NCBI GenBank assembly: GCA_963778555.1
Contig: CAVZUR010000005.1
Location: forward strand, 97,756 to 161,755
From: Candidatus Moraniibacteriota bacterium
Lineage (GTDB): Bacteria; Patescibacteriota; Minisyncoccia; Moranbacterales; UBA1568
Direction of reading: 5' to 3'
Length of the DNA stretch: 64,000 nucleotides
Under the pieces are notes generated by a model that was not told the DNA's origin, searched no databases, and saw only the letters and a list, made by a program, of their open reading frames with translations. A program made the position numbers and the translations under genes. Below, in pieces: positions 6,676-61,860 of this stretch; position 1 is the stretch's first letter; every line of letters starts with the position of its first letter.

Positions 6676-6780
6676 TCGAACCCCCCCCACCCTTCCAGAG
6701 GGGGGGGCTATGAACTCACGCACCGATAGAGTAACAGTATCGTCAACACCCCCATCAAAGGCTTTTCAAAGCACCAGCGT

Positions 6781-7843
6781 TTACTGGCCGACTTCTTTCC
6801 AGTTGAAGTCGCACGCCCGAGTACCGGGACAGGTGACAATGGTTCCGCAGCCATCATCGATGGTGAAACTTGCCACTGGGTCATTCGAGCATTTATTGAC
6901 AGAAATCGCGGTGGAACTGGCACTCGCACAGGAATTGGTCGGGACGCAGACCACGTTGGCTATCGCGAAGGCAGAAGCGTGAAGTCCGAGGTACGGCGTG
7001 ACGCTAATAGTGCTTGACCCAGTGGATACGCCTCGAGCCGTCCGTCCTCTAGGACTGCCATCGTTATTTCCCACCCTTGCGACATTTTGATTTGAGCTGA
7101 GCCAGGCGACAGCATCGGTCACATCAGTCGTACCAGTGAGGTTGCTGCAATCAATAGTTCCGCCACCGGCACGGTAATAGGCATTGAACTGGAAGGGCGT
7201 GATGCCTATAATCGCTGAGGCGGGACAAATCTTGAAATCCGCACCACCGAGAACCGTCACGGTGGCCTGTGCCGTGGTGACGCCGCTAGAATTGGTGGCA
7301 ACGAGTGTAAATATCGTGGTACTCGTCAGCAAGGGTGTTGAAATCGAGCCGATCGGTCCCAAAAACGGTCCACCAACCCCATTATCGATGAACACGGAAG
7401 TCGCACCAGGAATATTCCAGTTGAGGGTAGTAGCGGTATTGTTGGGAATGGTAGCTGGAAACGCCCAAAAGGCTCCGGGGGCGATGACGGGGGGGACAAC
7501 AGGCGCGGCGACGCTGCAGACTCCGCCGCATTGGTATGCGCCGGGACAACATTGGCCCAAGACATTGCAACTGGAACAAGGCAGGCCGTAGAGCGGCTCG
7601 ATCATGGAGGTTCAATATCGCACAGGAGGCGGGGACGACGAGTCCGCCGGCTTCGCCCGATGGAGATGTCGCCGCAATCTGGATTTCGGAAGAATACGCT
7701 GCTATGGGGGCCGAGCGGGGAGTTTGATACGAAAAGAAAAACCCACCCGCCAGGAAGGTTACGAGAGCAATTGAAAGGAAGAGAACCTTATTTTGTTTTG
7801 ATGCAATCCGGATTATTTTCCGGATTTTTTTACGCAAAGACAT
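6781..7843 (-). pseudogene. Secreted/membrane-anchored Cys-rich protein with Ig-like (Big_2-like) repeats, split by one apparent frameshift near 7600-7615
   Basis: ORF 7382-7879 supplies the start (MSLRKKIRKI at 7843) and a TM anchor (VLFLSIALVTFLAGGFFF), then runs into an Arg-rich nonsense frame. ORF 6781-7605 carries the plausible protein (CSSCNVLGQCCPGAYQCGGVCS, then beta-rich Big_2-like segments) but has no signal peptide. Removing one C in aacctccatgatc would join the two frames. Confidence 0.55.
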
Positions 7844-7921
7844 ACCTTTTGTTTCGAGGGAATCAACACCAATCCACAACCATAGTATACATGTTTTTCC
7901 GGCTTTTCTAAACCATGGAGG

Positions 7922-8807: not shown

Positions 8808-10277
8808 TCATGGGAACATATGCGGCAACGGATTCAGCTTCCACTCGGTGACACCTTTGGAAGCAGCGAATTCCTCCAAACGGTCGCTGTCGAAGGTGCC
8901 CTGGCACTCGAGGAGATAGAGGGGGAAAGCCTTCGGTACATAGACTTGGGCGATGTAGAACCCGAGCTTGGCTTGGATGGGATGCTTGGGGAAATAGGCA
9001 ATCGGGTAGTAGTCAGGGCCTCTTTTTCTCAGAACGGAGAGGCAGGCTTTCAGTTGGGTAGCATCATCGGTCGCTGAGGTGAGATCCTTTTGGCAGAGTT
9101 CCGCGTAGGAAACCTGCTTGCCGGAGAGGAACCACTGGAATTGCTGGATCTTTTCGGGACCGCGCCAGTAGAGTTGCCGTCCGATTTGACCGAGAACAGA
9201 AACGAATGGTTCGGATTGAGCATCCTTTTCCAGCTGCCGCTTATCACCCTCGTAATAAAACATTTCTGAGCTTATCACTATTTCTCTTAGAGAATGCCGT
9301 ATCGCTTGTTCGAATGTTGTCGCACTGGCGCCGCTCAGAACAATCTGAGGAGTCGCGCTCTTTGAGTTTAGGGCAGCAATAACGATAGACGGAATAGAGA
9401 GCGTTGTCACATCTACGATATGTAAAGACAGGCCGCATGATTCCAACGGGCGTATGATTTCCTGCATCTCCTCGGGGAGTGTTTCTACATCAATGATCCG
9501 CGGAGGAATCTGAGTGAGCCAGTGGACCAAGAATGCATCGCGCTCGATTGTTTCGAGGAGCCCACGCAGGAGAGCGCCATTTTTTGTGAAGTACCCGGCT
9601 GATCCGCTGGTCGTGGCGTTGACGAGAGGGGCTTCAGTGGAATAATTTTTGACGCACCATGAGGTCACTTGCCGCGGGATATACGTTTGTTCTTGCGTAA
9701 TGAGATTAATTCCACTCAGCCAATCCATCGGACGGGACGGGTCATGCTGGAGTTCCCGGTAATGCTCTCTTTGGATGTCCAAGAAGCGATGGTATTTCGG
9801 CGGGTAGAGTACTGGAAACTTTTTGAGCAGTTCGTTCGATGAAGCGATTAGTATGTCGGTATCCTTATTATACAAACCAGAAATGATGCGCTCAAGCATT
9901 TCGCCGATCGCTTTGGAAATAGCAGTCGCCCTATCTTTCGCAATCCCATGGCCGCTCACGCTCCGAAGATGTCCACGCACGACTACTTCTTTTTCCAGGG
10001 AATAAAAAAAGTATCCGGGAAAATGGAGACTTCTTTCTGCCATCGCATCGACGAGCCCTTTTTTTTTCAGATAAGTGTAAAGGGTTTCAGAGGCAGAGGT
10101 GACATCATCCGTGTGAGCAATATGCAGACTGTCCGCAAGCCAGGAATATCGGACGAATTGTTTTAATAAGCAAATCCGTATCCGATCGCCGATTCCCAGC
10201 GGTATTCGCCAGGGTCCGAACTTGTCCATAATTGGTTTCTTTCGTTTGATTTCGTCTGGTCTAACCGAATGTACCAA
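8808..10277 (-). CDS. YcaO-domain protein (cyclodehydratase-type), copy 1, intact
   Basis: 489 aa. VSGHGIAKDRATAISKAIGEMLERI (YcaO ATP/Mg motif region), TTSGSAGYFT, LLETIERDAFLVHW and the Pro-rich C-terminus NPLPHMFP (PxPxP-like). An alternative start MDKFGPW at 10229 aligns with the paralog. Confidence 0.8.
   Translation of the reverse strand: MVHSVRPDEIKRKKPIMDKFGPWRIPLGIGDRIRICLLKQFVRYSWLADSLHIAHTDDVTSASETLYTYLKKKGLVDAMAERSLHFPGYFFYSLEKEVVVRGHLRSVSGHGIAKDRATAISKAIGEMLERIISGLYNKDTDILIASSNELLKKFPVLYPPKYHRFLDIQREHYRELQHDPSRPMDWLSGINLITQEQTYIPRQVTSWCVKNYSTEAPLVNATTSGSAGYFTKNGALLRGLLETIERDAFLVHWLTQIPPRIIDVETLPEEMQEIIRPLESCGLSLHIVDVTTLSIPSIVIAALNSKSATPQIVLSGASATTFEQAIRHSLREIVISSEMFYYEGDKRQLEKDAQSEPFVSVLGQIGRQLYWRGPEKIQQFQWFLSGKQVSYAELCQKDLTSATDDATQLKACLSVLRKRGPDYYPIAYFPKHPIQAKLGFYIAQVYVPKAFPLYLLECQGTFDSDRLEEFAASKGVTEWKLNPLPHMFP
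8815..9178. repeat. Identical tract A shared in inverted orientation with 13299-13661 (364 vs 363 nt)
   Basis: The reverse complement of 8815-9178 matched 13299-13661 base for base where I compared it. The only difference is one C missing from a C5 run in the second copy (C4 at 13552-13555). Confidence 0.85.
9670..9919. repeat. Identical tract B shared in inverted orientation with 12544-12793 (250 nt)
   Basis: The reverse complement of 9670-9919 equals 12544-12793 by eye. It encodes AFSKAIGEMLERIISGLYNKDTDILIASSNELLKKFPVLYPPKYHRFLDIQREHYRELQHDPSRPMDWLSGINLITQEQTYIPR in both paralogs. Confidence 0.85.
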
Positions 10278-12152: not shown

Positions 12153-13668
12153 ATGCGGAGCGACTCCTCTTCAAAATTTTTCCATTGCTCGGGATACCTC
12201 TCCCTTAGGGAGTATGTGGAGGATATCGAGTCGATGAGGCAGCATGGCCCGTGGCGGCTCCCGCTCGGCATCGGCGACCGGGTGCAGATTTTCTTTTTCT
12301 CCCTGATTCTGAAATACTCCTGGTTTTCTGATGCGTTGAGCATACGGTATCCCTATACGTGGAGCCCAGCGTATTCGGTGCTCATCGCCTATCTGAAAAG
12401 GTGTGGCGTAGTCGATGTGGTCCGGGAGCAGAATGCGAATCGCAGCGGATATTCCTTCTTCTCCCTTCAAAGGGGCATTTCCATAAATGAAAATATTCGG
12501 ACCATCGGCGGTCTGGGAGTCGACCAAGAGGTCTCGACGGCGTTTTCCAAAGCGATCGGCGAAATGCTTGAGCGCATCATTTCTGGTTTGTATAATAAGG
12601 ATACCGACATACTAATCGCTTCATCGAACGAACTGCTCAAAAAGTTTCCAGTACTCTACCCGCCGAAATACCATCGCTTCTTGGACATCCAAAGAGAGCA
12701 TTACCGGGAACTCCAGCATGACCCGTCCCGTCCGATGGATTGGCTGAGTGGAATTAATCTCATTACGCAAGAACAAACGTATATCCCGCGGCATATTGTT
12801 TCGTGGTTTGGGTTTGCCGAAGCGCGCGTGTTCAAAGACATTCTCCTGCATCCGACATCCAATGGCTGTGCCGGGTACTTTACGAAGACGGGTGCTGTTT
12901 TGCGAGGGCTGATCGAAGCAGTGCAACGGGACGCTTTTCTCGTCCATTGGCTCACGCAGATCGCCCCTGATCGCATCATCGAGGACACTCTGTCGCTAGA
13001 AATTCAGAAACAAGTCGGGGAATTCAAGGCGCGTGGAATCACCCTGCATATTCTCGATGTCACAGCTCTTTCTATCCCGTCCGTATCCATTGTGGCAATC
13101 AATGCTGAATCGGAAACTCCGCAGATTATTTTGAGCGGCGCAGAGCGGCGACATTTGAGCGGGCGGTGCAGGACGCACTCCGTGAAATGGTGCTGATGTC
13201 AGCGACTATGTTCTACCAAGGAGAAGCTAATAATAGAAAGAAAGAGCCTATGTTAGCAGAGCCGCAGCCATTCGTTTCTGATCTCAATGAGAAAACCAGG
13301 CAACTCTACTGGCGCGGTCCCGAAAAGATCCAGCAATTCCAGTGGTTCCTCTCCGGCAAGCAGGTTTCCTACGCGGAACTCTGCCAAAAGGATCTCACCT
13401 CAGCGACCGATGATGCTACCCAACTGAAAGCCTGCCTCTCCGTTCTGAGAAAAAGAGGCCCTGACTACTACCCGATTGCCTATTTCCCCAAGCATCCCAT
13501 CCAAGCCAAGCTCGGGTTCTACATCGCCCAAGTCTATGTACCGAAGGCTTTCCCCTCTATCTCCTCGAGTGCCAGGGCACCTTCGACAGCGACCGTTTGG
13601 AGGAATTCGCTGCTTCCAAAGGTGTCACCGAGTGGAAGCTGAATCCGTTGCCGCATATGTTTTCTTGA
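12153..13668 (+). pseudogene. YcaO-domain protein, copy 2, interrupted by two 1-nt deletions (about 13141-13147 and 13552-13555)
   Basis: ORFs 12153-13196 and 13166-13642, plus a third frame to the stop at 13666-13668, together reconstruct a full YcaO colinear with copy 1. IILSGA|AATFERAVQDALREMVLMSATMFY requires a +1 shift. KAFP|LYLLECQGTFDSDRLEEFAASKGVTEWKLNPLPHMFS requires another, at a C4 run that is C5 in copy 1. Confidence 0.75.
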
Positions 13669-25472: not shown

Positions 25473-26210
25473 TTATTTAGGTGTGTCTGGTTTTTGGTCG
25501 TATCCACGAGATATAGAACTGCCGCCGTCTACCGAATAGGCGGCTCCGGTGACATAAGAGCATTTATCCGAGGCCAAAAAAAATACTACATTGGCCACTT
25601 CTTCGGGCGTACCGAGTCGCTTCATCGGTAATCTGCCTACCGGAAAATTTTTTCGCAAAAAAGGAGTATCTGTCGGACCCGGACAAACGCAGTTTATCCT
25701 GACACCGTCAGCTGCATAGCGTGCCGCCATAGACTTGGTGAACATGACAACAGCTGCCTTTGACGCGCAGTACACTGGGAATTTTAAGTCTGGAACGAGT
25801 CCGAGTTGCGAAGCGATATTGATGATTGATCCCTTAGTTTTTTTGAGATGGGACAGCGTATGCTTCGTCACAAGGAAAGTGCCCGTCATGTTGATGTCAA
25901 AGATATCACGGTATTCTTCGAGAGAAAAATCAGGGATGTCGATTTGACCTTTATAGTTTACGCCAGCGCTGTTGATAACAATATCTATTTTCCCAAATTT
26001 TCTGTGCGTCGCGTCAACCATTTTTTTTACTGAGCCCTCATCTCGTATATCAGTCTCTATAAAAGTAATGATATTACTTTCTGGTTGTTCTCTGTTACGT
26101 TTGGACGCGATAACGACATTGGCTCCTGCATTCGTGAAAAGCTGAGTAATCGCCTCACCGATACCAGTGCCTCCGCCCACTATGATGACTGTTTTTTCAA
26201 ACATGTCCAT
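25473..26210 (-). CDS. Short-chain dehydrogenase/reductase (FabG-like)
   Basis: 245 aa. IIVGGGTGIGEA, NSAG and YCASKAAVVMFTKSMA (YxxxK). Confidence 0.8.
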   Translation of the reverse strand: MDMFEKTVIIVGGGTGIGEAITQLFTNAGANVVIASKRNREQPESNIITFIETDIRDEGSVKKMVDATHRKFGKIDIVINSAGVNYKGQIDIPDFSLEEYRDIFDINMTGTFLVTKHTLSHLKKTKGSIINIASQLGLVPDLKFPVYCASKAAVVMFTKSMAARYAADGVRINCVCPGPTDTPFLRKNFPVGRLPMKRLGTPEEVANVVFFLASDKCSYVTGAAYSVDGGSSISRGYDQKPDTPK

Positions 26211-26400: not shown

Positions 26401-26414
26401 GGGGGGGGGGGGGG
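26401..26414. repeat. G14 homopolymer in a divergent intergenic/promoter region
   Basis: ttc-GGGGGGGGGGGGGG-tagcc, 91 nt upstream of the ATG at 26505 and ~190 nt upstream of the minus-strand SDR start at 26210. Confidence 0.9.
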
Positions 26415-26504
26415 TAGCCTCGCATGATTTGAATCCTACTTGGTGTGGTCAACCGCCAATCATAGCCCATTTCAGTCTGATTTGGTAGGGTGAGGATAGT
26501 TAAT

Positions 26505-27869
26505 ATGGATCGTCGACTAGCCATTTTCATCGCTATCCTCGTCCTCACGAGCGCTCTCGTGGGCAGTTTTTTGTGGCATGGGGTAAAAGAGAGATCAATG
26601 GTTGTCGTGTCGAATGAAATGCCCCAGTCTGATTACCAGATAGTTTATACTGCCGAAGGCTACCAACCTGATCAGCTTGACATCCCGATCGGTTCACGCG
26701 TCGAGTTCAAAAATACCACTGAGATTCCGATGTGGACGGCTTCGGATCCACATCCAGTACACTCAGACTTCGCTTCTTTTGATGCCCAGAAGGCCTATTA
26801 TTTAGGCGAGACATTCGTTTTTCAATTCAAGGATGCTGGAACGTTCGGTTTCCACAATCATGAGAAGTCGATTCACCGTGGAATCATTCACGTGATAGAT
26901 CCCGATCACCCTTTGCAGACAATTGATAAAACGAAAGAGAGTCAGCGGTCGATGCGTGACAAGTACTTAGCCATGCTCGATCCGAATGATCCGAATTCAA
27001 TTTTTATTCTTTTAGATACCATTAAGTCCGATAGTATTCTTTCTCAGGATTATTGTCACGATATGGCACACGATCTTGGGCATCGGGCGTATGAAATGTT
27101 TGGATTTTCTGGCGCAATGACATTCAGCAACCCAGAGCATCTCCGCCATGCACCAGTAGATGATGTGTGCGGGGGTGGTTATATGCACGGGATCTTAGAG
27201 GAGATCTTTCTTCGTCGGCCAGCGTTGAAAAAGGATCCAGGCACGGTTTGTTCATCAGTACCTGATGATAGTAAACATCGCTGCTTCCATGGCGTGGGAC
27301 ACGGACTTATGTTTGTGAACAAGAGAGACTATCCCGCCTCCCTGTTGGGATGTCGACAGCTTGAACAGATCAAAAATAAAAAGCAATGTTTTGAAGGTGC
27401 TAGCATGGAACTTTTCTGGGGGAATACCGAACACACTGGAGCAGACTCACTTGGTTGGACGAAAGAGTCGATACTCCTTCCCTGTATGAACGCGAAAATG
27501 GACGAGAAGCCGTTTTGCTTTCTCTATGCGCATCTCGGATATCTGCGGACAAATCCGAAAGATTTCAATGGAGTGGTAAAGCTCTGTACACAAAACGGAC
27601 TCGAAAATAGAGATATAGACTTCTGTCTTAAGGGGGTTGGTGTCACAATGATTAAGCATTTTACTGAGCAGCATTTAGAGCAAACCGAGAAACTCGTTGA
27701 AGAACTAGACGCTGAAAAAAAATACTCCTACTATAGTGGCGTGATTGCTCATGCGAATCTCATGAAAGTGAGTGGGGTCAGGCTGAGTACTTTTTGCGAT
27801 GCCCTCAGGCACGATGCAGTGCTTTGTAGAAATGCTCTACGCGATGCCCCGAGTGTTCAAGATAATTAA
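26505..27869 (+). CDS. Membrane-anchored protein with a tentative cupredoxin-like N-terminal domain and a Cys/His-rich C-terminal domain
   Basis: TM AIFIAILVLTSALVGSFLW. IPIGSRVEFKNTTEIPMWTASDPHPVHS...GETFVFQFKDAGTFGFHNHEKSIHRGIIHVI resembles cupredoxin-fold domains but lacks a Cys ligand. The remainder is unassigned. Confidence 0.55.
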   Translation: MDRRLAIFIAILVLTSALVGSFLWHGVKERSMVVVSNEMPQSDYQIVYTAEGYQPDQLDIPIGSRVEFKNTTEIPMWTASDPHPVHSDFASFDAQKAYYLGETFVFQFKDAGTFGFHNHEKSIHRGIIHVIDPDHPLQTIDKTKESQRSMRDKYLAMLDPNDPNSIFILLDTIKSDSILSQDYCHDMAHDLGHRAYEMFGFSGAMTFSNPEHLRHAPVDDVCGGGYMHGILEEIFLRRPALKKDPGTVCSSVPDDSKHRCFHGVGHGLMFVNKRDYPASLLGCRQLEQIKNKKQCFEGASMELFWGNTEHTGADSLGWTKESILLPCMNAKMDEKPFCFLYAHLGYLRTNPKDFNGVVKLCTQNGLENRDIDFCLKGVGVTMIKHFTEQHLEQTEKLVEELDAEKKYSYYSGVIAHANLMKVSGVRLSTFCDALRHDAVLCRNALRDAPSVQDN

Positions 27870-30309: not shown

Positions 30310-30343
30310 AGTGGCATTACCGAATAACATAATTTATTGCGCT

Positions 30344-32911
30344 ATGGAGTCGTCCGAAAAGCCATCGTTTGCACGTTTTGGGAGTCAGGCTAATTTTGCA
30401 TCGAGTGACCGGGTGAATGGGGGAGTGGTCCGAACCGAGACGCCGCTTCGAACCGGTACCGGGACAGCCGCACCGTCCCGCGTGCAGACCGCCAAGGTAT
30501 TTGATCTCATCATCACCAGCGTGCTCGTCGTGCTCTTCGCAGGTATCCCAGTCTTTTTTACGGGACTCACATTTCAAGGTATTGCATTTGAAAAACAGAT
30601 CTTCTTCTACTGCTGTCTTCTGATCGGGTTCGTCGCGTGGGTCTCGAAGGGGGTCATGACGGGTGAGATGCGTATCCGCCGGACGCCACTGGATATCCCC
30701 ATCGTTCTCTTTTGGCTGTTCTCGATCGCAGCGACGGTTTTCTCAGTTGACCGATGGCACAGTTTCTGGGGATTCTTCGGCGACCCATCGCGCGGTTTCA
30801 TCAGTCTGACGGCTTTGGTCCTGGCCTACTTCTTCATCATGAGCCATTTCACCGAACGGCGGAGGAATCTCATGCTCGGATCATTCCTCGTGTCGGGAGT
30901 ACTTGTTATCCTGTGGAGTTTCTTGGTAGTGATGAAACTTCGCTTTCTCCCCGCGAGCTGGGAATCGATGGCACCCTTGTCCTTGGTCGGTTCGATGTCG
31001 ACGCTGAGCCTCTTCTTGGCCCTCCTCATCCCGCTCATGGTGACTGCCTTGTTCCTCTTGTTTCGTGAAGGATCAGGGGCCTCATTGATGTTGCGTCGGA
31101 GCGGGGCAGCTGTCCTCGGTGTCGCTTTGCTGCTCGATTTATTCTTGCTCCTCGCGCTCTATCCGTTCGTGTCGTGGCCGGTCGTTCTGGGTGGATTGGG
31201 ATTTTTCCTCATCTACATCCTCGCGCAGATTGTCCGTCCAGCCAGCGAATTGACCTGGATGCCGATGGTGATTTTCGTCGTCGTCCTCGCCTTTCTCATG
31301 ATCGGCCAAAACCAGCTCGTCCGGGCGACGCTGCCAATCGAGGTGACCCCGAACATGAAATTGTCCTGGCAGATTGCCAAGGAAGCACTGAGCGCCAATT
31401 TCCTCTCTGGCACTGGCTTGGGGACATACGGCTATGATTTCTCACTCTTCCGTCCGCAGGAGTTCAATGGCAATGCGCTTTACACGCTGCGCTTCTATCA
31501 GGGGACGGGTCTCGTCTTTGAAGCGCTGTCGACCGTTGGCATTGTCGGAACTATTCTGATGCTCGTTATCTGGTTCTCCTTCTTGTCGGTCGGACTCTAT
31601 CTCCTCACCATGGATAAGGCCAAGAACAAAGTCGCTTCGCTCGGCTTGTGGTCGGTCGCGGTTATGCTGTTCATCTCCGGCTTCGTGTCGCCCATCAATT
31701 CCACGATTCTCATTCTGAGCGTCCTGCTCTCGGCACTTGCACTCGCGACCCTCTTGCAGGAAAGCGGATCCGAAGAGCGGCATTGGGAACTTTCGTTCCG
31801 GGCGACACCAAAGTTCGCACTGGCCCTAGCGTTCGTATTCATGGTGGTCTCCGCAGGCGTGGCATTCCTCTTCGTCTTCATGGGTAAGGTGTTTCTGGCC
31901 GATATTTCGGCGGGCCGGGCGTCAAGGCTTCCGGCATCAGTCGAGGAGACCGTTCCCAAGTACTTGAAAGCCATTCAGCTCTATCCGCAGGAGGGTCGGT
32001 ATTTCACCCGTGTTGCCCAAGAATACATGGCGATCGCCAATGCCGAGGGTGGCAAGAGCGCTGAAGAAAGAGATGTGAACAAGATCGCCTTCGCGGTCCG
32101 TGAAGGCGTGGCCGCTGGTGTCCGCGCCCGTGACCTGATGCCGAACGATGTGCTCGCGACGGAGGCCCTCGGATTGGTCTATGAGAACGCGAGTATTTAC
32201 GCGACAGACGCGTTGCCCAAGGCGGAAGAGATGTATGCGCGTGCCCTGGAACTCGAGCCGCAGAATCCGCTGTTCTCCATCAAGCTCGGTCAGATCAGCC
32301 GGCTCAACGCGGATGGGAAGCAGGATCCAACTGAGAAGGCAGCACTCTTTGCAGCGGCCAAAGCCTCTTTCGAGAAGGCCATTGAGCAGAAAGCTGATCT
32401 CGCGGTCGCGCATTACAATCTCGCAGTCGTCAATTCCCGATTGAAGGACTATGACGCGGCCATCCGCTCCACCTCTCAAGCGATCCGTCTCGCGCCGTCG
32501 AACCTCTCCTTCCGCTATAATCTCGGGCTGCTCTATCAGGAGCGCAATGGCGAGGGTGATCGCAACCAAGCCGAAGCACTGTTCAAGAACGTGCTTGAAG
32601 CTAATGACCGGCTCATCGATGTTCGGCTCTCGCTCGGTCTTCTGTACGAGTCCGAAAGCAAGCGCGACCTGGCGATGGAGCAGTACGAAAAGATCCTCGT
32701 TCTCATCCCAGAGGATGAAAAAGTTTCGGCCAATGTGAAGCAGACCAGGACTCAGATTACACAGATCATCGAGAATCTTCGCTCTGGCAAAGGTAATATC
32801 CCGGCGGGGAGCAGCCTCGCTGAACCGGGTCCGACCACGCCAACGACCGTCGCACCGTCCGTTCCGACGACGAGTCAAAGCGAGTCACTCCTGAATGGGC
32901 CGACGCGGTAG
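30344..32911 (+). CDS. Polytopic membrane protein (O-antigen-ligase/Wzy-like) fused to C-terminal TPR repeats
   Basis: About 855 aa. More than 10 hydrophobic helices span roughly the first 530 aa. The C-terminus carries TPR-like units (AEEMYARALELEPQNPLF, AVAHYNLAVVNSRLKDYDAAI, RYNLGLLYQERNG) and a Pro/Thr-rich tail. The Wzy-like call rests on architecture only. Confidence 0.6.
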   Translation: MESSEKPSFARFGSQANFASSDRVNGGVVRTETPLRTGTGTAAPSRVQTAKVFDLIITSVLVVLFAGIPVFFTGLTFQGIAFEKQIFFYCCLLIGFVAWVSKGVMTGEMRIRRTPLDIPIVLFWLFSIAATVFSVDRWHSFWGFFGDPSRGFISLTALVLAYFFIMSHFTERRRNLMLGSFLVSGVLVILWSFLVVMKLRFLPASWESMAPLSLVGSMSTLSLFLALLIPLMVTALFLLFREGSGASLMLRRSGAAVLGVALLLDLFLLLALYPFVSWPVVLGGLGFFLIYILAQIVRPASELTWMPMVIFVVVLAFLMIGQNQLVRATLPIEVTPNMKLSWQIAKEALSANFLSGTGLGTYGYDFSLFRPQEFNGNALYTLRFYQGTGLVFEALSTVGIVGTILMLVIWFSFLSVGLYLLTMDKAKNKVASLGLWSVAVMLFISGFVSPINSTILILSVLLSALALATLLQESGSEERHWELSFRATPKFALALAFVFMVVSAGVAFLFVFMGKVFLADISAGRASRLPASVEETVPKYLKAIQLYPQEGRYFTRVAQEYMAIANAEGGKSAEERDVNKIAFAVREGVAAGVRARDLMPNDVLATEALGLVYENASIYATDALPKAEEMYARALELEPQNPLFSIKLGQISRLNADGKQDPTEKAALFAAAKASFEKAIEQKADLAVAHYNLAVVNSRLKDYDAAIRSTSQAIRLAPSNLSFRYNLGLLYQERNGEGDRNQAEALFKNVLEANDRLIDVRLSLGLLYESESKRDLAMEQYEKILVLIPEDEKVSANVKQTRTQITQIIENLRSGKGNIPAGSSLAEPGPTTPTTVAPSVPTTSQSESLLNGPTR

Positions 32912-34428: not shown

Positions 34429-34456
34429 TTCGTCCTTTCCGATTCGATTAGGGAAC

Positions 34457-34486: not shown

Positions 34487-34587
34487 GGGATGGGGCCAGT
34501 TTGCCCTTCGAGCACGAACGAGATTGACGGTGAAAAAAACCATTGACAGGATCGCTAACATGCTTTGGACAGGCGCAGTAGGAGGGG

Positions 34588-34625
34588 GTATACCACTACA
34601 CCAATATATTGGTGTAGTGGTATAC
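34588..34625. promoter_or_regulatory. Perfect 38-nt palindrome (gtataccactacaccaata|tattggtgtagtggtatac) upstream of P4
   Basis: The two 19-nt arms are exact reverse complements with no spacer. The element overlaps a possible -10 (tatacc/tatact) and ends 47 nt before the P4 start at 34673. Confidence 0.7.
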
Positions 34626-34672
34626 TGAAACCATACAAAACTGGGTAAATTGTCTAACTCGCTGCGTGGAGT

Positions 34673-35053: not shown

Positions 35054-35111
35054 ACCTAACAGTGGGAGGCCAGTATCAAAGGCAGGATCAGTTATGAGCG
35101 GCCGGAACAGT

Positions 35112-35528
35112 ATGCACACAAAAACGAACACCCCCCAGCGAATACAGGTTTTTCCGAAGATTTTTTATTTCGGGGTTTTTCTTTTGTTTGGGGTATTGTT
35201 TCTCGGACCAACAGAGCTCTTTGCACAAACGTGTCCGGCTGGATTTAGTGCGGAGAATGGCACGTGTTGGCCTACCAATACAGGTCTCTCAGAGGCGTCG
35301 CTCTATGATATTATCGTGGCGGTCATGAACTGGATTCTCGCGATTGTCGGTTTCATCGCTATCATTGCCTTCACCATCTCAGGTGTCCAATATATGACCG
35401 CGGCCGGGGATGATTCGCAGATTGAAACCGCCAAGCGCAACATGAAGTATTCCGTCGTCGGTGTTATCGTCGCGCTTTCGGGCTATATCGTCATCGCGAC
35501 AATCGATAATTTGTTCCTGTCAGCCTAA
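35112..35528 (+). CDS. TrbC/VirB2-like small membrane protein, paralog P5, with a short Cys pair after the signal peptide
   Basis: 138 aa. Start chosen by homology of MHTKTNTPQRIQVFPKIFYFGVFLLFGVLFL to the P6 N-terminus. AQTCPAGFSAENGTCWPT, then WILAIVGFIAIIAFTISGVQYMTAAGDDSQIETAKRNMKYSVVGVIVALSGYIVI. Confidence 0.7.
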   Translation: MHTKTNTPQRIQVFPKIFYFGVFLLFGVLFLGPTELFAQTCPAGFSAENGTCWPTNTGLSEASLYDIIVAVMNWILAIVGFIAIIAFTISGVQYMTAAGDDSQIETAKRNMKYSVVGVIVALSGYIVIATIDNLFLSA

Positions 35529-35590: not shown

Positions 35591-36400
35591 ATGAACACAA
35601 AAAGAAACCGGCGACCCCATACTGAAATCTTCCCAAAAATGATTGTTTTTGGTGTTGTTCTGTTGTTCGGAGCATTGTTTCTCACGCCTTCTCCGGCGTC
35701 GGCCCAGAGCTGCGTCGGGACCTGTGTGCCGAACTCTATCGGCTGCCAGGGTACGCTGATTCCGGGTCCCGGTACTTGCCCAGATCCGGCGAATGAAGAA
35801 TGTTGTTGGGGCGGTGCGATCCCTGATCCAGTACCGACTGGGGGTGGTCCAGCAGCTTCAGCTGGTGGCGGACCGGTCTCTATGACGTCTACAGACGTCT
35901 CCAATCCGCTCAGCTTCACCACAGTGGATACGCTTTTGACGAACGTTCTCGGTTTCGTCCAGAGCTTCATGGTCATCCTCTCCCTCATCTTCATCGTCAT
36001 CGGCGCAATCATGTATATCACCTCGGGTGGGGACTCGGGCCGTATCGAGACGGCCAAGAAGGCCATCGCCGCGGCTCTCATCGGCCTGGCCATCGGTATT
36101 GCGGCCCCGGCCTTCCTGAAAGAGATCGCCCAGATCCTCGGCTGGACCGATGTCCCGAGCAATGTGAGCGGTGCCAAGTCCCTCCTCGAAATCGCCGGCG
36201 GCGTTCTGAACTTCCTCCTCTCTGTCGTCGGCATCATCGCCCTCATCATGCTCGTCGTCGGTGCCCTCATGTATCTGACCGCGGCCGGGGATGAAGATCG
36301 GATCGATACCGGCAAGAAGATCGTGAAGTACTCCATTATCGGCATTACGATTGCTTTGGCCGCCATGGTCTTGGTGCGGCAAGTCGCGGGGTTTTTCTAA
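35591..36400 (+). CDS. Pilin-like protein P6: one Cys-rich module plus two tandem TrbC/VirB2-like hairpin domains
   Basis: 269 aa. Signal peptide, SCVGTCVPNSIGCQGTLIPGPGTCPDPANEECCWGG, Gly/Pro linker, then hairpin 1 (ILSLIFIVIGAIMYITSGGDSGRIETAKKAIAAALIGLAIGIAAP) and hairpin 2 (LLSVVGIIALIMLVVGALMYLTAAGDEDRIDTGKKIVKYSIIGITIALAAMVL). Confidence 0.75.
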   Translation: MNTKRNRRPHTEIFPKMIVFGVVLLFGALFLTPSPASAQSCVGTCVPNSIGCQGTLIPGPGTCPDPANEECCWGGAIPDPVPTGGGPAASAGGGPVSMTSTDVSNPLSFTTVDTLLTNVLGFVQSFMVILSLIFIVIGAIMYITSGGDSGRIETAKKAIAAALIGLAIGIAAPAFLKEIAQILGWTDVPSNVSGAKSLLEIAGGVLNFLLSVVGIIALIMLVVGALMYLTAAGDEDRIDTGKKIVKYSIIGITIALAAMVLVRQVAGFF

Positions 36401-36414
36401 ACTGATACGAGGCT

Positions 36415-38241
36415 ATGCCATTTCGAAATCTTTTGGTCATCATCTTCCTCTCCGCTGTCTTCGGACTGTTCATTCCGGGCTTGACCCAGGCGCAGACCTG
36501 CCAGGAAAATGGCGGTGCCTGCCGTCCGGGCTGGGTATCGGGTTGCGCTAACCCAGAGACGCCTGTGTCTGGAACTTGTCCGGCTGCCCCTTCAAATGCT
36601 CCTCCGGGTGGTGTGCTCATCTGTTGCCGCGCGAGCCAGTCAGGAGTGATGAATGCACGGATAGCGGAGGAGTCTGTCGAAGCGCTTACTATTCGACGGA
36701 GTTTCCGAACGCTGAATGGCCCGCTCAACCTGCCTGTGGATATAGCACTGCAGAAGTCACATCATCGGCACGCTGCAGCAACTTTTTTGCGCTCTGTTGC
36801 GTCCCGCCGCCGAATCTCGGCGCCAGCTGCAATGGTGGATCCGGCACTTGTCTGTCGGCTGGGAGCTGTGCGAGTCCGGTCGCGTCGGCTGACTGCGTTG
36901 GGGGGGCTGTGTGCTGTCCACCGCTCTCGCCGAATGTTGGAACTTCGTGCGGTGGTACCGCCACGTGCCAGTTGACCTGTAGCGGCACACCGTCATCCTC
37001 GCCAACATGCGTCGGTGGAACCATGTGTTGTACACCGACTCCGCCCCCTCCTCCCCCCCGCCGCCGCCGGTGGACAATGTTGGAACTGCCTGTGGTGGGA
37101 CGGCCACCTGCCAATTTGCTTCGAGTTGCGCTGGGACGCAAGCTCCCTCCGCCATTTGCACGGGATCGACCGTGTGCTGCACGCCGACTCCCCACCGCCA
37201 GGCGCGAATGTCGGGACCGCCGTGCGTGGGGGATACTGACCGGCGGTGCGGGTGTCTGCGAATTTACGTCGCTCTGCAGCAATACGGAAACCTCGGGGAC
37301 CTGCACAGGGGGGACGGAATGCTGTATCTTTTCTGCTCCGCCTCCGCCGCCGCCTGTCTCGACCTGCGCTTCAGTCGGTGGTACCTGCGCGCGGGCCGTC
37401 GATGGCTGTCCGGATGGCGAGGTGCCTGGCGGCACGTGCAGCGCCAATCAGCTCTGCTGTGCAGCGGCTTCCTGTGCTGCCATCGGCGGTACGTGTACCC
37501 GGATCGATGCGGGTTGTAGTGCTGGTGAGCGGACGGGGATCTGCAGCGCGGGCCAGATGTGCTGCGCGCCGACGAGTACGGCTGTCTGTGAACCGCTCGG
37601 TACCTGTGTGCCTGCCGGGGGCTGCCTCACTGGGGAAGTGCCAGGCGGCATCCTGTGCCGATCCCGGCCGGATGTGTTGCGCTGTGTCCGCACCGGCTGG
37701 TGGTGGGCCGCTCAATGTTCCCGGGAGCGCGCTCAATCTCCCCAATCCACTCCTCTTCAATGACTTCAATGGGCTTTTCATCGCAGCTTTGAGTTCGCTC
37801 CAGAATCTCCTCGTCATCCTCTCCCTCATCTTCATCGTCATCGGCGCAATCATGTATATCACCTCGGGTGGGGACTCGGGCCGTATCGAGACGGCCAAGA
37901 AGGCCATCGCCGCAGCTTTGATCGGCCTGGCCATCGGTATCGCGGCTCCGGCCTTCCTGAAAGAGATCGCTCAGATCCTCGGCTGGAGCGATGTCCCGAG
38001 CAATGTGAGCGGTGCCAAGTCCCTCCTCGAGATCGCCGGCGGCGTTCTGAACTTCCTCCTCTCTGTCGTCGGCATCATCGCCCTCATCATGCTCGTCGTC
38101 GGTGCCCTCATGTATCTGACCGCGGCCGGGGATGAAGATCGGATCGATACCGGCAAGAAGATCGTGAAGTACTCTATTATCGGCATTACGATTGCTTTGG
38201 CCGCCATGGTCTTGGTGCGGCAGGTTGCGGGGTTTTTCTAG
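36415..38241 (+). pseudogene. Pilin-like protein P7: signal peptide, about nine Cys-rich modules with poly-Pro linkers, then two hairpin domains; broken by at least 5-6 frame changes
   Basis: A conceptual protein can be followed through ORFs 36415-36975 (f1), 36576-37763 (f3), 37007-37519 (f2), 37015-37239 (f1), back to f3, then 37246-38241 (f1). Frame switches fall near 36630-36645, the C7 run at 37053-37059, ~37190, ~37222, ~37236 and ~37645. Modules follow C-x3-4-G-x-C...C...C-x2-6-CC. Confidence 0.6.
37813..38241 (+). repeat. 429-nt direct repeat of 35972-36400 (the double-hairpin 3' ends of P6 and P7)
   Basis: Constant offset of 1841 nt. Only scattered substitutions were seen by eye, e.g. 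ggaccgatg vs ggagcgatg and caagtcgcg vs caggttgcg. Confidence 0.85.
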
Positions 38242-38271: not shown

Positions 38272-38569
38272 CCACCACACCAATCATTCTTCACCGTGTA
38301 TGTTTTATGTTTATGTGTTGAAGAGTCAGAAAGATGGTAAAGGATACATCGGTTCCACGAATGATCTCAAAAGAAGACTTTCCGAACATCAAGGAGGACA
38401 AGTGACTTCGACAAAGTCTCGCCGTCCTTTCAAACTAGTCTATTACGAGGCTTATTCAGCCGAGACTGATGCCAGGAAACGGGAGGAAAATCTCAAGTTA
38501 AAGAGTCGCGCCTATGCCCAACTACTGAAAAGGATTTCAGAAAGTCTCAAAGTATGATTGGTGTGGTGG
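38272..38569 (+). mobile_element. 298-bp cassette: GIY-YIG ORF bracketed by perfect 16-bp inverted repeats
   Basis: ccaccacaccaatcat at 38272-38287 and its exact reverse complement atgattggtgtggtgg at 38554-38569. The right repeat contains the ORF stop codon. Confidence 0.55.
38300..38557 (+). CDS. Stand-alone GIY-YIG nuclease-domain protein
   Basis: 85 aa. FYVYVLKSQKDGKGYIGSTNDLKRRLSEHQ...KLVYYEAYSAETDARKREENLK matches the GIY-x10-YIG, Arg and Glu catalytic-core pattern. Confidence 0.8.
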   Translation: MFYVYVLKSQKDGKGYIGSTNDLKRRLSEHQGGQVTSTKSRRPFKLVYYEAYSAETDARKREENLKLKSRAYAQLLKRISESLKV

Positions 38570-38640: not shown

Positions 38641-40107
38641 CTAAGTGCACTGCTCGATCATGACCTGGAGACTGCCGGGTCCTTGGCGGTGGAGATCCGG
38701 CGCCGCGTAGATGTTTCGGCCCAGGGTGATGGTCAACGGCTGCGACGTCTCGATGCGGCCCTGTTCGCCGATGAAGAGGGGCTTGTATCCCCACTCCTTG
38801 GCGAGGACGAAGAAGCGTCCATAGGGCTGCGTCTCCCGGGCGATTACCTCGCTCGGGAGCGGGGCTCCCGGTACTGGTTGCGGTCTCCAGTATCCGCCGC
38901 CATAGCCGGTAAAGGCTTGCCCTTTGTTGTAGCAGGTATTGATCCTGCCCAGGGCATCCATGTCGCAGGAGTAGTCCAGTGACATGTCGGTTTTTTTCAG
39001 GAAGTGCTGCTGCACTGTCCCACTCACCTGGAATTTGTATTTCCCAGGCGGCAATGGCGCATCGAGTGTCAACCGGCCATTGGTCGACTCACTTGGCACA
39101 TAGTCCACTTCCAGATAGGGGGAGCAGACCGAGGCCATGGCGACGGGTGTCGCCGGAGCCGGTGCAGTTGCCTGCCCCATGCTCGTTGACGCCGTACTCG
39201 GTGCCGTCGTGACCGTGGTCGCGTCAGCACCGATCTTGGCGCATTCTTCGAACTCGGCCGCGGTCGGGATGACCGGGGCGATCTTCTTGGCTGGGTCGCC
39301 CTTAGCTTTTGCCTCGAGCTTCGCGTAGCAAGCATTGCGCTCGCCTTGCTTGGCGGTTTCGGCTGCCATTTCGGCTTGGACTCGGGCGGCTGCGGTGGCC
39401 GCTTCGGCACGCCGCTTGGCATCCGTCGACCGATCATCGATCGACTTCAGGCCCAGCTTGTGCTGAGTCCAGGCGACCAGATCCTTCTGATATTCGCGAA
39501 TACCAGGAGTCCAGCTGCCCAGGGTCCAGACGATCACAGCGATCAGGATAGTCGCCGAAAAGTTCAGGACGAACTTGCCGCTCCGATTGGTGTACATGCA
39601 CCAGACGGTGAGGAACACCGATGCCGCGAGCATGACGATGGCACCGACGGGATTGCTCCCGATGGGCCAGAGCGCCAGGACGAAGAAGGGGAGTGAACCA
39701 TAGAGCGCCACCATTGCGGCGAATCGGCCGAGCGCGTAGATCCACGTTTCTGCCCACTTCTTGCCGTCCGTTACGCTCAGTCCAACTTCGCCCCCCGGTT
39801 GCGCAGCGACGAAAGCCACACCCGCTGGTCCGAAGATGTTCAGCGGCGTCAGAATGAACGCCACGGCGGTGAGCAGGAACGCCATTGCGGCGATCCAGTT
39901 GAGGTGGCGGAGAGAGTCGGGGAACCAGACGTTCACCACGGCGCCCACGATGAGGGCGGCGAAGTACGCGAGGACGAAGAGTCGGGTGACCCTGAACCAG
40001 CCACGGTGGAAAGAGAACCACCGACCAGTCCAGTCCGCATTCACGAGAGGACCGAAGTACTCCAAGGGTGAAACATTGGGAACAGGGGGAACAGGTTGCG
40101 TTGCCAT
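38641..40107 (-). CDS. Polytopic membrane protein of unknown function with a charged Ala/Lys/Glu linker and a C-terminal soluble domain
   Basis: 488 aa. AAGGAG sits 8 nt upstream and overlaps the stop of the upstream gene. About 6 TM helices in the first 230 aa, then AKRRAEAATAAARVQAEMAAETAKQ, then a beta-rich domain. No family recognised. Confidence 0.7.
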   Translation of the reverse strand: MATQPVPPVPNVSPLEYFGPLVNADWTGRWFSFHRGWFRVTRLFVLAYFAALIVGAVVNVWFPDSLRHLNWIAAMAFLLTAVAFILTPLNIFGPAGVAFVAAQPGGEVGLSVTDGKKWAETWIYALGRFAAMVALYGSLPFFVLALWPIGSNPVGAIVMLAASVFLTVWCMYTNRSGKFVLNFSATILIAVIVWTLGSWTPGIREYQKDLVAWTQHKLGLKSIDDRSTDAKRRAEAATAAARVQAEMAAETAKQGERNACYAKLEAKAKGDPAKKIAPVIPTAAEFEECAKIGADATTVTTAPSTASTSMGQATAPAPATPVAMASVCSPYLEVDYVPSESTNGRLTLDAPLPPGKYKFQVSGTVQQHFLKKTDMSLDYSCDMDALGRINTCYNKGQAFTGYGGGYWRPQPVPGAPLPSEVIARETQPYGRFFVLAKEWGYKPLFIGEQGRIETSQPLTITLGRNIYAAPDLHRQGPGSLQVMIEQCT

Positions 40108-59771: not shown

Positions 59772-61860
59772 TTATTCCAAGTGGATGCGTTCTTCGAACG
59801 TCTGCAGCGCTTGGCGGAGAAGGGGATGGTTCGTGAGCGTTGGATCAGATTGTAAGACAGTGGCGGCTTTCTCGCGTGCAATCTGGATGAGTTTCACATT
59901 GGAGAGGTGCTCCATGGCGATATCCGGCAGACCTGACTGACGGGTGCCGAGAAAGGCGCCCGGACCGCGAAGTTTCAGGTCGATCTCGGCCAATTCGAAG
60001 CCGCTCGTGGTTTTCTCCAGCGCCTGAAGACGTGTACTTTCTGGACTTTTTCCGTCGCTTGGGAAAAGAAAGCAGTAACTCTGATCTACTCCGCGCCCGA
60101 CGCGTCCACGGAATTGATGGAGCTGGGAAAGGCCGAAGCGTTCCGCGCCCTCGATGAGCATGACTGTTGCGTTGGGAATGTCGATGCCAACTTCGACAAC
60201 CGCGGTCGCGACAAGGATGTCGAGTTTCCCAGTTTTGAAAGCCTGCATAACTGCTTCTTTTTCTCTCGTTTTCATCCGTCCATGGAGGAGGCCAATGGAG
60301 CGTTCGGGAAAGACTATTGCCGAGAGGCGCTCATATTCCGCTGTCGCTGCCTTCACATCCTCCAGAGTCTTGCTGACTTCAACGAGCGGAAGGATGACGA
60401 ACGCCTGGTGTCCTTTCCGTACTTCTTGCTCGATGAAGGCGTAGACTTTTCCTCTGGCTGCTTCACTGGCTGCGACGCGGGTGATAATTGCCTTCCGGAA
60501 TTTCGGCATCTCGTCGAGGAGCGACAGATCAAGATTGCCGAAGAGTGTAAGAGCGAGCGTCCGGGGTATCGGCGTGGCCGTCATAGTGAGGAAGTGCGGA
60601 ATAGTCGAATCCGACCCGTCCTCGCTGTCGAATGCTTTCTCTTGGAGTTTGGCACGCTGGGCGACGCCAAAGCGGTGCTGTTCGTCGACGACGATGAGCG
60701 CAAGCGATTGGAAACGGACGGCGTCTTCGAGGATGGCATGCGTGCCGATGATGATATCCGGTATCCCGGCCCCGATTGCCTGGAGAAGCGCCGGCCGGCG
60801 AATCGGTTTTCCGGACAGCGTCGAGAGGCTACCCGTGAGGAGGGCGACATTTTTCCCGAGCGGCGCAAAGAGCCGTTCGAATGTGGCGGCGTGCTGTGTC
60901 GCCAACACTTCTGTCGGTGCGAGCAAAGCCGACTGATAGCCCGTGAGTGCCGTTGCGTACATGGCGGTTGCGGCGACAACGGTTTTGCCGCTTCCGACAT
61001 CGCCGTTCAAGAGCCGGTTCATGGGATGCGTCCCGCGGATGTCGGTGAGGATTTCATCGGTCGCTTTCTGTTGGGCAGTCGTGAGCTCAAAGCCAAGCGC
61101 CCCGAAGAAGTGGTTGCGGTCACTCTCACTGAGAGTAAGCGGATGAGATTGTCCGTTCGTGGCCTTTTGGCGTACCTCGAGACTTTTGAGCTGGAGAAAA
61201 AACATCTCCTCGAACGCAAAACGCTTCTCGGCGAGCAACACTTGTTTCTCGGTCTTGGGGAAATGGAGATAGGCGAGCGCGGTTCGGAGATCGGGGAGAT
61301 GGAGATCGCCGATGATTTCGGCATCAAACGGGTCGGGGATGGCTTTCAATTTTTCAAAAAGCGTCGCAATCTGCCAGCGGAGGAATTTCGAAGTGAGTCC
61401 AGTCGTTTCGGGATAGACGGGGACGAGACGGCCGGTATGCGTCGCGCTGCGTTCGGCGCGCTCGAAAGCGCGGGATCTGCATGACGAGCCCGTCCCGGTC
61501 ACGCGAGACTTTGCCTGAAAGTCGGACGGATTGTCCCTCGCGCAATACAGTCTGAACGAAACGCTGATTGAACCAAATGACGCGCAGCGTCCCAGTCGAA
61601 TCTTCGATGTGCGCCTCAGTCAGGAGCATTTTTCGTTTCCATGTCCGGGTGGCCGAGAGTTTCGTCACCGTCCCCTCGACGGTCACTCGAGCTTCGGGCG
61701 TGAGCGCTGCGATGGGCGTGATGACGGAATAGTCTTCGTAGCGATGCGGAAAGTGATAGAACAAGTCACGAACGGTCTCTACGCCGAGGCGCTTTAGCGC
61801 ATACCAGTGAGTCTTTTTGACGGCGGGGAGGGTATCGAGGCGGGTAGTGAAATCGAGCAT
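59772..61860 (-). pseudogene. recG: ATP-dependent DNA helicase RecG with one frameshift near 61470-61475
   Basis: ORF 61354-61860 encodes the wedge/OB N-terminus. ORF 59772-61502 encodes the helicase core (GDVGSGKT, VVDEQHRFGV, MTATPIPRTLAL, HGRM). The frames meet at cagatcccgcgcttt, where removing one C from the CCC run restores ...LVMQIRAFERAE... Confidence 0.8.

Follow-up and report, generated by a model that had tools for sequence, protein, structure and literature searches.

Classical VirB2 pilins are about 100-130 aa long with one hairpin, and arrays of VirB2-like pilins are thought to be central to the contact between CPR episymbionts and their hosts. Contingency loci with poly-G/C tracts include the pilC and pgl genes of Neisseria, the lic genes of Haemophilus and surface genes of Campylobacter.

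Tandem arrays of 2-11 VirB2-like pilin genes are known in CPR genomes (bioRxiv 10.1101/2025.01.22.634366), a range that, as given in the passages of that preprint on pilins, includes the seven paralogs of the locus presented here. According to the same passages a pilin is located near virB4 in about 58% (1,135 of 1,948) of the CPR assemblies that carry both genes; they make no mention of a pilin with two tandem hairpins and a stalk built of nine six-Cys modules.

P7 (positions 36415-38241, forward strand, as are its parts and the array described below) closes a series of seven VirB2-like pilin genes in the window, i.e. the whole 64-kb stretch of DNA that was analysed, which comes from a Moranbacteria-type genome of the Patescibacteria (CPR). 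It encodes a conceptual 607-aa modular pilin, which is legible only through six frame changes. We infer that these are probably residual indels of the assembly or its consensus in a gene that is functional. P7 resembles the VirB2/TrbC pilins of T4SS in its PF18895 hairpins and its Sec signal peptide, but differs from classical VirB2 in having two tandem hairpins and an N-terminal stalk of about 400 aa with nine six-Cys modules.

Organization of the pilin array and of P7

Five VirB2-like pilin paralogs, recognized with Pfam, occupy positions 32930-35528 (starts at 32930, 33417, 34057, 34673 and 35031); the first of these also matches PF04956 (TrbC). They are followed by P6 (35591-36400), a paralog of 269 aa whose frame is intact and which joins a single six-Cys module to a double pilin domain like that of P7. 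The start codon of P7 lies 14 nt past the stop of P6, with a GAGG motif resembling a Shine-Dalgarno sequence just 5' of the signal peptide. A scan for promoters and terminators around P7 gave nothing above shuffled expectation.

Once repaired, P7 consists of a signal peptide, nine modules of the pattern C..C..C..C..CC and two PF18895 (VirB2/TrbC-like) pilin hairpins. This agrees with the earlier note, which had recognized a single sensible protein with signal peptide, about nine modules and a double hairpin. A signal-like N-terminus and two hydrophobic hairpin regions are visible by eye in the translation. The signal peptide (MPFRNLLVIIFLSAVFGLFIPGLTQA, 36415-36492) was read from the sequence, and the N-termini of the relatives align with it. 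Module 1 (36493-36627, frame 1) is kept at the N-terminus of all relatives, and module 2 (36628-36800) is likewise conserved. Modules 3 and 4 (36801-37031, frame 0; six Cys each) enclose a G7 run at 36900-36906 that is read through. Translation places module 5 and its poly-Pro linker at 37032-37180, followed by module 6 (37181-37325), modules 7 and 8 (37326-37565, frame 0, with module 7 at 37359-37460) and module 9 (37566-37680). The Pro-rich linkers had been described as encoded by poly-C tracts; poly-Pro linkers are indeed present, but only one lies on a long C run, the other (37336-37355) being encoded by mixed CCG and CCT codons.

The two tandem hairpins extend over 37790-38220, the second at 38017-38220 and the first, delimited by eye, at about 37790-37985. 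The C-terminus of P7 matches Pfam PF18895 (T4SS_pilin) in two stretches with 57.7 bits (cut-off 26.6, E=1.3e-15). Its last 429 nt (37813-38241) are a copy of P6, 97.7% identical to 35972-36400. A match below threshold to NF045849, a pilin-like family of mycoplasma ICEs, fits the monoderm-type T4SS ancestry that has been proposed for CPR, and a comparison of the C-terminal domain with PDB sequences yielded nothing above noise (best match ribosomal protein S9, E about 1.5). Among about 45 long window ORFs scanned with Pfam, none has a T4SS core domain (VirB4, VirB6, VirB3 or another); as pilin and virB4 are paired in only the above fraction of the CPR assemblies with both genes, according to the part of the preprint that deals with pilins, this does not count P7 out of the T4SS pilins.

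Judged from these parts, P7 would be exported via Sec and would consist of the signal peptide, a disulfide-rich stalk of nine modules with short Pro-rich linkers, and two tandem hairpins contributing four membrane helices. The hairpins may hold P7 in the membrane or incorporate it into a pilus of the T4SS type, and the disulfide-stapled modules would be exposed on the outside, forming a stalk for adhesion to, or contact with, a host cell. CPR bacteria have enzymes of the MdbA/VKOR type, which could form these disulfides. It is plausible that the stalk is a determinant of host specificity.

Intact versions of the gene, which the earlier note had proposed to look for in related genomes, exist. 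The intact relatives are 626-723 aa long and include P0001 to P0004, of which P0001 and P0003 span the whole P7 query. A 683-aa intact relative is encoded at 6486-8537 of L001, from a related genome with the same gene order. Related contigs contain 34 pilin ORFs with modules, all of them uninterrupted and none with its modules split across frames. Their longest C/G run measures 3-5 in 28 of 34 (4-5 in 27 of 34) and never exceeds 7; poly-Pro linkers are rare among them and no C/G tract is conserved. The module composition of the stalk varies among the relatives, at times with Ig-like domains instead. In the collections searched the nearest relative reaches at most about 70% local identity, and an exact-sequence look-up of P6, the GIY-YIG ORF and one small pilin of the window returned no record. 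An exhaustive search of 1.84 billion representatives with a 35-position module profile recovered only P0002 and P0003, a result that reflects a lack of power and is not evidence of rarity.

The frame changes and their sequence context

In three-frame translation P7 follows the path 1, 0, 2, 1, 2, 0, 1 (start modulo 3), whereas the literal frame from the ATG terminates at a stop at 36973-36975. This confirms that P7 can be read only with frame changes, as the earlier note reported, and the changes are refined here to six sites between about 36630 and 37660. The first (36627-36650, frame 1 to 0) is best accounted for by two extra bases in CCGCGCG, the CG at 36631-36632, at a site without homopolymer, because the spacing from the CC to the next Cys is exactly 8 residues in five relatives. 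The second (37053-37059, frame 0 to 2) lies in a C7 run that is one base short. Three changes fall into module 6: one base is missing from cccc at 37190-37193, one is extra at about 37222, and another is extra between 37226 and 37244, either in a G5 run or at 37241. The sixth, one extra base at 37650-37660 (frame 0 to 1), is located in module 9. A repair of module 6 by a single one-base deletion in the G5 run was rejected, as it leaves five Cys; two one-base insertions are preferred because removing both restores the Cys after NVGTA and matches the loop length of P0001. Module 6 repaired in this way (CVGDTDGGAGVC) has the same length as the CVGDNIGTSGTC modules of P0001.

The breaks had been described as clustered at C/G homopolymers, which is not well borne out: of the six intervals to which the breaks can be confined, only three include a C/G run of at least 4, where about one is expected by chance (P(>=3)=0.055). 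Seven of the ten C/G runs of at least 4 in the P7 region are read through without a break, including the G7 run at 36900-36906 and a G6 run at 37308-37313. Intact ORFs covering 48 kb likewise read through 70 A/T runs of at least 6 and 43 G/C runs of at least 5. The breaks of P7 are not a general homopolymer effect, and their link to homopolymers is weak.

Other frameshifts of the window were located via overlapping ORFs on the same strand together with Pfam, a codon-usage frame tracer being too insensitive (it missed P7). RecG is broken by a single-base indel, with its wedge and helicase parts in separate ORFs. A giant surface protein with an S74 domain carries four 1-nt indels within 180 nt, as judged against its own paralogous repeats, and near 7610 a frame break divides a secreted Big_2-like protein. 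Of the four genes with indels, three encode secreted or surface proteins; ValRS, NusA, trigger factor, ClpP and TsaD are intact. At eight of the 12 indel sites the local G+C ranks among the top 10% in the 64-kb window, and the Cys-rich part of P7 is the window's only 1-kb stretch with a G+C content of at least 0.64. The remainder of the S74 gene (4 kb) is undamaged despite being just as G+C-rich and repetitive, so that G+C alone cannot explain the patches.

Programmed ribosomal frameshifting or transcriptional slippage was rejected, since six such events would be required, of both signs and mostly away from slippery sequence, and the relatives show none of them. An association with GATC, a methylation motif, was considered as well: three indel sites touch a GATC and the other nine are 20-188 nt away, which, with 327 GATC in the window, was judged to be at chance level without a formal test.

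Origin of the broken frame

The damage to P7 consists of indels only, with no in-frame stop and all 54 Cys kept. Simulated neutral decay produced this pattern with P=0.011 at 5 substitutions per indel and P<0.001 at 10 per indel. In the C-terminus shared by P6 and P7, nine of the ten differing codons are synonymous and one is non-synonymous, and purifying selection is visible in this part. None of the marks of relaxed selection (in-frame stops, conserved residues lost, a dN/dS close to 1) was seen in P7.

Of the three options listed in the earlier note, indel errors of the assembly are favored by the indel-only damage, the selection on the C-terminus, the intact relatives and the similar indels in RecG and two surface-protein genes. 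The indels of P7 would be single-base consensus errors, one of them possibly of two bases, in the most G+C-rich kilobase of the window. Against this reading stands the clean remainder of the window, because of which the error model must be patchy; failed polishing or low coverage in genes that are G+C-rich or strain-variable surface genes, for example, has to be added as an assumption. The excess of surface proteins among the affected genes also stands against it, as this is equally predicted by selection to lose surface antigens or receptors.

A true but very recent pseudogene is a possible though rather unlikely origin. P7 would have picked up several small indels quickly after inactivation, perhaps together with other surface genes, under selection to shed a surface structure such as a phage receptor or a host-recognition determinant. 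The frame is unambiguously broken, the stop in the ATG frame included, most of the indel-bearing genes are of the secreted or surface class, and P6 keeps a near-identical pilin domain that could substitute for that of P7. Six indels without a stop, with intact Cys and an almost wholly synonymous C-terminus, nevertheless do not fit neutral decay at normal ratios of indels to substitutions, and three of the breaks lie outside repeats, in sequence that seldom acquires indels naturally. The indel density in the S74 gene is that of an unpolished consensus rather than of a young pseudogene, and the housekeeping gene RecG bears the same type of lesion. The decaying pseudogene proposed earlier therefore survives as a very recent inactivation, while long decay is contradicted by the absence of stops, the complete set of Cys and the ratio of synonymous to non-synonymous changes. 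If the clustered indels in the three surface-protein genes were real, they would suggest that this lineage is losing surface structures quickly by way of indels, which is the less likely case.

Slipped-strand phase variation, the remaining suggestion of the earlier note, is very improbable. The poly-C and poly-G tracts that encode Pro and Gly stretches would act as contingency tracts switching the pilin on and off; a C7 tract coincides exactly with a frame change, C/G runs are somewhat over-represented in the break intervals, and the product is a surface protein, the usual phase-variable class. A switch, however, needs one reversible tract, whereas six breaks coexist in P7. The breaks at 36627-36650, at about 37222 and at 37650-37660 are not at slippable repeats, so that P7 as written could not return to the on state. 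A tract of 4-5 bases is too short to switch at a useful rate, and among the tracts at breaks only C7 is long enough; the G7 and G6 tracts of P7 are in frame, and the 34 intact relatives have no conserved long C/G tract. P7 is thus like the contingency genes of Neisseria, Haemophilus and Campylobacter in being a surface-protein gene with a C7 run at a frame change, and differs from them in its six simultaneous breaks, half of which are outside repeats, and in that its other runs at least as long leave the frame undisturbed. Altogether the breaks have much more the look of sequencing errors that escaped correction, or of very recent damage, than of a phase switch.

That P7 is a silent donor cassette, an unexpressed store of modules recombining with the expressed P6 via the 429-nt homology as pilS does with pilE in Neisseria, is hardly credible: the near-identity of the C-terminal 429 nt of P6 and P7 points to recent gene conversion, the corresponding C-termini of the two orthologs in L001 being plainly less alike, but P7 comes with a start codon, a Shine-Dalgarno-like motif and a signal peptide of its own, its relatives are intact genes of full length, the one-sided homology leaves cassette exchange without a second crossover site, and we know of no donor-cassette system for VirB2-type pilins.

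With consensus errors as the preferred explanation, read support is needed before P7 is classed as a phase-variable gene or as a pseudogene, and RecG and the two surface-protein genes of the same assembly deserve equal caution.

The six-Cys module in comparison with beta-defensins

The six-Cys signature of beta-defensins is C-x4-8-C-x3-5-C-x9-13-C-x4-7-CC, with the disulfide connectivity C1-C5, C2-C4, C3-C6. In P7 the spacing is C-x5-6-C-x3-6-C-x8-10-C-x5-CC in modules 3-5 and 7-9, and module 6 differs in a first gap of 10; G-x-C motifs precede Cys2 and Cys4. Compared with the beta-defensin signature, the fit is complete for modules 4 and 5; in each of modules 3 and 6-9 one or two gaps deviate by one residue (module 6 also has its long first gap), and the loops of modules 1 and 2 are longer.

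The earlier note could not name a family for the module. This has to be qualified, as the only specific matches are to beta-defensin families, although all are below the curated thresholds. Module 7, compared with all of Pfam, matched only Defensin_beta_2 (E=0.0025) and Defensin_beta (E=0.0062), and none of 10 shuffles with fixed Cys matched either family. The best scores, 18.6 and 16.9 bits, stayed below the respective Pfam gathering thresholds of 22.2 and 21 (PF00711/PF13841), and five of 31 modules matched PF00711 at E<=10. Among PDB sequences the module profile had beta-defensin 106 as its top match (E=0.0085), followed by other beta-defensins and a tick inhibitor.

AF2 models were obtained for module 7 (pLDDT 91.5) and module 4 (pLDDT 87.6). 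A Foldseek comparison, as suggested in the earlier note, gave mostly proteins of the beta-defensin fold: 13 of 15 matches for the first model and the sole match for the second. The module resembles animal beta-defensins, with matches that are weak but specific.

It may be proposed, tentatively and with more doubt than confidence, that the module truly adopts the beta-defensin (trans-defensin) fold, disulfide topology included, and that it serves as a tandem stapled block, with a maximum of nine to about a dozen copies in one protein, on host-contacting VirB2-like pilins of CPR. To our knowledge the trans-defensin fold has so far been described only from animals, and P7 and its relatives would, if the proposal is true, represent the first prokaryotic occurrence of a beta-defensin-type fold and a new class of 'decorated' T4SS pilins. 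If the likeness is real, the small domain (about 33 aa, confidently predicted) would also be tractable for structural work.

The beta-defensin (trans-defensin) fold group includes PF00711 and PF13841 as well as the tick carboxypeptidase inhibitor, the platypus DLPs and crotamine. A cationic character is absent from all nine modules of P7, in each of which K+R does not exceed D+E. Beta-defensins are cationic free peptides, whereas the modules of P7 are non-cationic domains arranged in tandem within a 607-aa membrane protein.

Reading frame and architecture of P7

P7 (36415..38241, +), the last gene of the VirB2-like pilin array, has no single open frame in the ORF list; the mechanical list gives four overlapping pieces on the plus strand (36415..36975, 36576..37763, 37007..37519 and 37246..38241). 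Three-frame translation and codon-level junction views yield one sensible protein, whose frame (start mod 3) runs 1, 0, 2, 1, 2, 0, 1. With conceptual repair the product has 607 aa and consists of an N-terminal signal peptide, nine modules with exactly six Cys apiece in the order C..C..C..C..CC, short Pro-rich linkers between them, and a C-terminal region scoring 57.7 bits (cut-off 26.6) in two stretches against Pfam PF18895 (T4SS_pilin). The repaired translation and the PF18895 score confirm, with refinements, the observation of the earlier note, whose description (signal peptide, about nine Cys-rich modules, double hairpin) was correct in substance.

The frame-change sites proposed there were refined to six, all read on the plus strand. 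The best reading of the first (36627-36650) is a surplus of two bases (CG) in CCGCGCG: in five of five relatives exactly eight residues separate the CC of module 1 from the Cys that opens module 2, and only that repair yields this spacing. The C7 run 37053-59 and the cccc at 37190-93 are each one base short. A single extra base is present at each of three sites: ~37222, where repair restores the Cys after N-V-G-T-A of the sister modules, 37226-37244 (G5 run or 37241) and 37650-37660. Repairs four and five together make the P7 loop CVGDTDGGAGVC equal in length to the CVGDNIGTSGTC modules of P0001, an intact related protein. The supposed clustering at C/G homopolymers is weak: runs of at least 4 occur in three of the six break intervals, with about one expected by random placement in the same G+C-rich stretch (P(>=3)=0.055), and of ten such runs across the P7 region seven stay in frame, a G7 and a G6 among them. 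Homopolymers are no general problem in the window; in 48 kb of its uninterrupted ORFs, 70 A/T runs of at least 6 and 43 G/C runs of at least 5 are read through.

Intact relatives

A scan with one genome per species delivered eight related loci, several from Candidatus Moranbacteria/Moraniibacteriota MAGs, and a metagenome scan 78 further ones. Locus L001 has the gene order of the window: small pilins, a P6-like double pilin and, 11 nt past it, an uninterrupted 683-aa P7-like gene, followed on the other strand by a homologue of window 38641..40107. A stand-alone GIY-YIG nuclease ORF of 85 aa (38300..38557, +) adjoins the 3' side of P7 and may be a small mobile insertion, since it is absent at the same position in L001. 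Intact P7-related proteins of 691, 723, 626 and 627 aa were found by protein search; P0001 and P0003 span the whole P7 query; for the remaining pair the best local alignment covers 57% and 35%. Modules one and two are conserved, as are the last modules and the pilin domain. Relatives differ in the middle part, with a dozen or so six-Cys modules in P0001 and Ig-like segments in P0002-P0005 and L001.

Over all loci, six-Cys modules and the pilin motif share a frame in 34 ORFs; the other module ORFs of the related loci are cut by contig ends, as is the P7 homologue of L003, or are separate adjacent genes. Module-bearing ORFs that overlap in different frames occur in the window only. The P7 gene family is real and intact elsewhere, and the earlier proposal to look for intact versions at orthologous loci was borne out. 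Module-bearing pilin genes reach the contig end in several short-read metagenome contigs (L003 12120..12455; L077, L079, L080), which points to frequent assembly breaks at genes of this class.

Nature of the frame breaks

The last 429 nt of P7 and the end of P6, the paralog just upstream (37813..38241 and 35972..36400), share 97.7% DNA identity. Nine of the ten differing codons are synonymous; since the copies diverged, that of P7 has therefore been evolving as a coding sequence. The two C-termini suggest that a gene conversion or duplication took place recently in this lineage; the P6-like/P7-like pair of L001 is much more diverged. The repaired P7 frame contains no stop and all 54 of 54 module Cys. 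Neutral decay was simulated by substitutions on the 1,212-nt Cys-rich part of P7, on the premise that substitutions are several-fold commoner than indels, as they are in bacterial mutation-accumulation experiments. With six indels, the probability of no stop and no Cys lost was 0.011 for 30 substitutions (5 per indel) and <0.001 for 60 (10 per indel). Under this assumed ratio long neutral decay is excluded, leaving indel-only damage. For the frame breaks an artefact, or otherwise a very recent event, is the likeliest origin.

Indels also occur in other genes of the window. RecG (59772..61860, -) is broken into two ORFs that overlap by 149 nt, one with the wedge domain (61354..61860, -) and one with the helicase (59772..61502, -); the junction lies within GATCCCGCGCTTTCG, near 61455-61475, and either the loss of 2 nt from a CG repeat or the gain of 1 nt could account for it. 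The other housekeeping genes checked are intact. In a giant surface-protein gene the Peptidase_S74 chaperone domain lies in ORF 1481..5629 (+), and the 5' part upstream (1..1900, +) repeatedly changes frame, with single-base indels against its own internal paralogous repeats at ~158 (+1), ~264 (-1), ~288 (-1) and ~335 (-1). A secreted Big_2-like, Cys-containing protein (6781..7879, -) is apparently split near 7600-7625 (~7610): its signal-anchor ORF 7382..7879 enters an Arg-rich out-of-frame tail, the remainder lies in ORF 6781..7605, and an internal C7 run (G7 on the plus strand, 7489-95) is read through. Ranked by local G+C, eight of 12 indel sites belong to the highest tenth; P7's Cys-rich part, with 64.7% G+C vs 51.9% for the window, is the only kilobase of at least 64%.

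Because these dense lesions are patchy and indel-only and affect housekeeping and surface genes at repetitive and non-repetitive sites alike, the P7 breaks are probably residual consensus errors, with an extra assumption for the patchiness. Long-read sequence left unpolished by short reads in G+C-rich or strain-variable regions would be a possible source. The indel-only damage, the same lesions in RecG and surface genes, and the intact relatives thus favour the assembly-indel option of the earlier note. The main rival, a true but very recent inactivation, is all that survives of the decaying pseudogene also considered there; it fits the surface-protein excess among indel-bearing genes and is judged rather unlikely. 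Slipped-strand phase variation is unsupported and highly improbable: six breaks coexist, three have no reversion by slippage, just one P7 tract is long enough, and among the 34 intact relatives poly-Pro linkers are rare and no long C/G tract is conserved (maximum run 3-5 in 28 of 34, never >7).

The longest tract of the window, an intergenic G14 (26401..26414) between the divergent genes 25473..26210 (-) and 26490..27869 (+), would fit the role of a slippage-prone promoter or spacer tract better than any P7 tract. An inverted pair, C8 then G8 with an 11-nt gap (6681..6707), forms a strong hairpin between convergent or adjacent genes and is probably a terminator. Two YcaO-domain proteins within 4 kb (8808..10277, -; 12153..13196, +) may mark a RiPP (azoline/thioamide-type) cluster, an unusual find, if so, in a small CPR genome.

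The six-Cys module and the pilin array

From P7, P6 and relatives 45 modules were gathered, 31 of which were aligned. Their common pattern, C-x3-10-C-x3-9-C-x8-17-C-x4-10-CC with G-x-C before the second and fourth Cys, is one we take to resemble the beta-defensin signature. The only Pfam matches of module 7 are Defensin_beta_2 (E=0.0025, 18.6 bits, cut-off 22.2) and Defensin_beta (E=0.0062), both sub-threshold; Defensin_beta is matched at E<=10 by five of the 31 modules. No defensin match was obtained with ten shuffles of module 7 with Cys fixed in place, and the signal is therefore more than Cys spacing alone. Against PDB sequences the top match of the module profile is beta-defensin 106 (E=0.0085); other top matches are a human beta-defensin, gallinacin-2, tick carboxypeptidase inhibitor and bovine beta-defensin 12. 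At the level of sequence the likeness is specific and repeatable, with every score sub-threshold. The module, for which the earlier note could name no family, still belongs to none by these scores, but can be called beta-defensin-like from the Pfam and PDB-sequence profile matches. It is not filed as a member because of the sub-threshold scores and a neutral to acidic charge, unlike the cationic beta-defensins. Trans-defensins are described from animals only, and bacterial reports concern cis-defensins only (PMC11561630); a true trans-defensin fold match would be new. The interest of P7 is moderate and lies in the module, not in the frame breaks.

The array has seven members (32930, 33417, 34057, 34673, 35031, 35591 and P7) and on its flanks lie envelope-glycan genes and a large multi-TM/TPR protein; no T4SS core genes were seen among the long ORFs scanned in the 64-kb window. 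The multi-TM/TPR protein, multi-pass with C-terminal TPR repeats (30311..32911, +), lies directly upstream of the array, a position conserved in L003 (7278..9830), and is preceded by glycerophosphotransferases, GT2 glycosyltransferases and a sugar dehydratase (17-30 kb). Taken together, these genes could be connected with glycosylation of the pilins or the envelope.

Within P7 the hairpins would serve for anchoring or polymerisation, and the disulfide-stapled modules would be displayed for host contact. MdbA/VKOR-type disulfide-forming enzymes are enriched in CPR genomes (bioRxiv 10.1101/335083), so that an oxidised stalk outside the cell is plausible. VirB2-like pilin genes (PF18895/PF04956) in tandem arrays of 2-11 are reported from 383 Patescibacteria assemblies in a preprint that discusses the arrays as possible host-adaptation or variation devices (bioRxiv 10.1101/2025.01.22.634366). 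P7 is a new architectural variant of these known CPR VirB2-like pilins; unlike ordinary VirB2, it has two hairpins and a stalk of roughly 400 aa.
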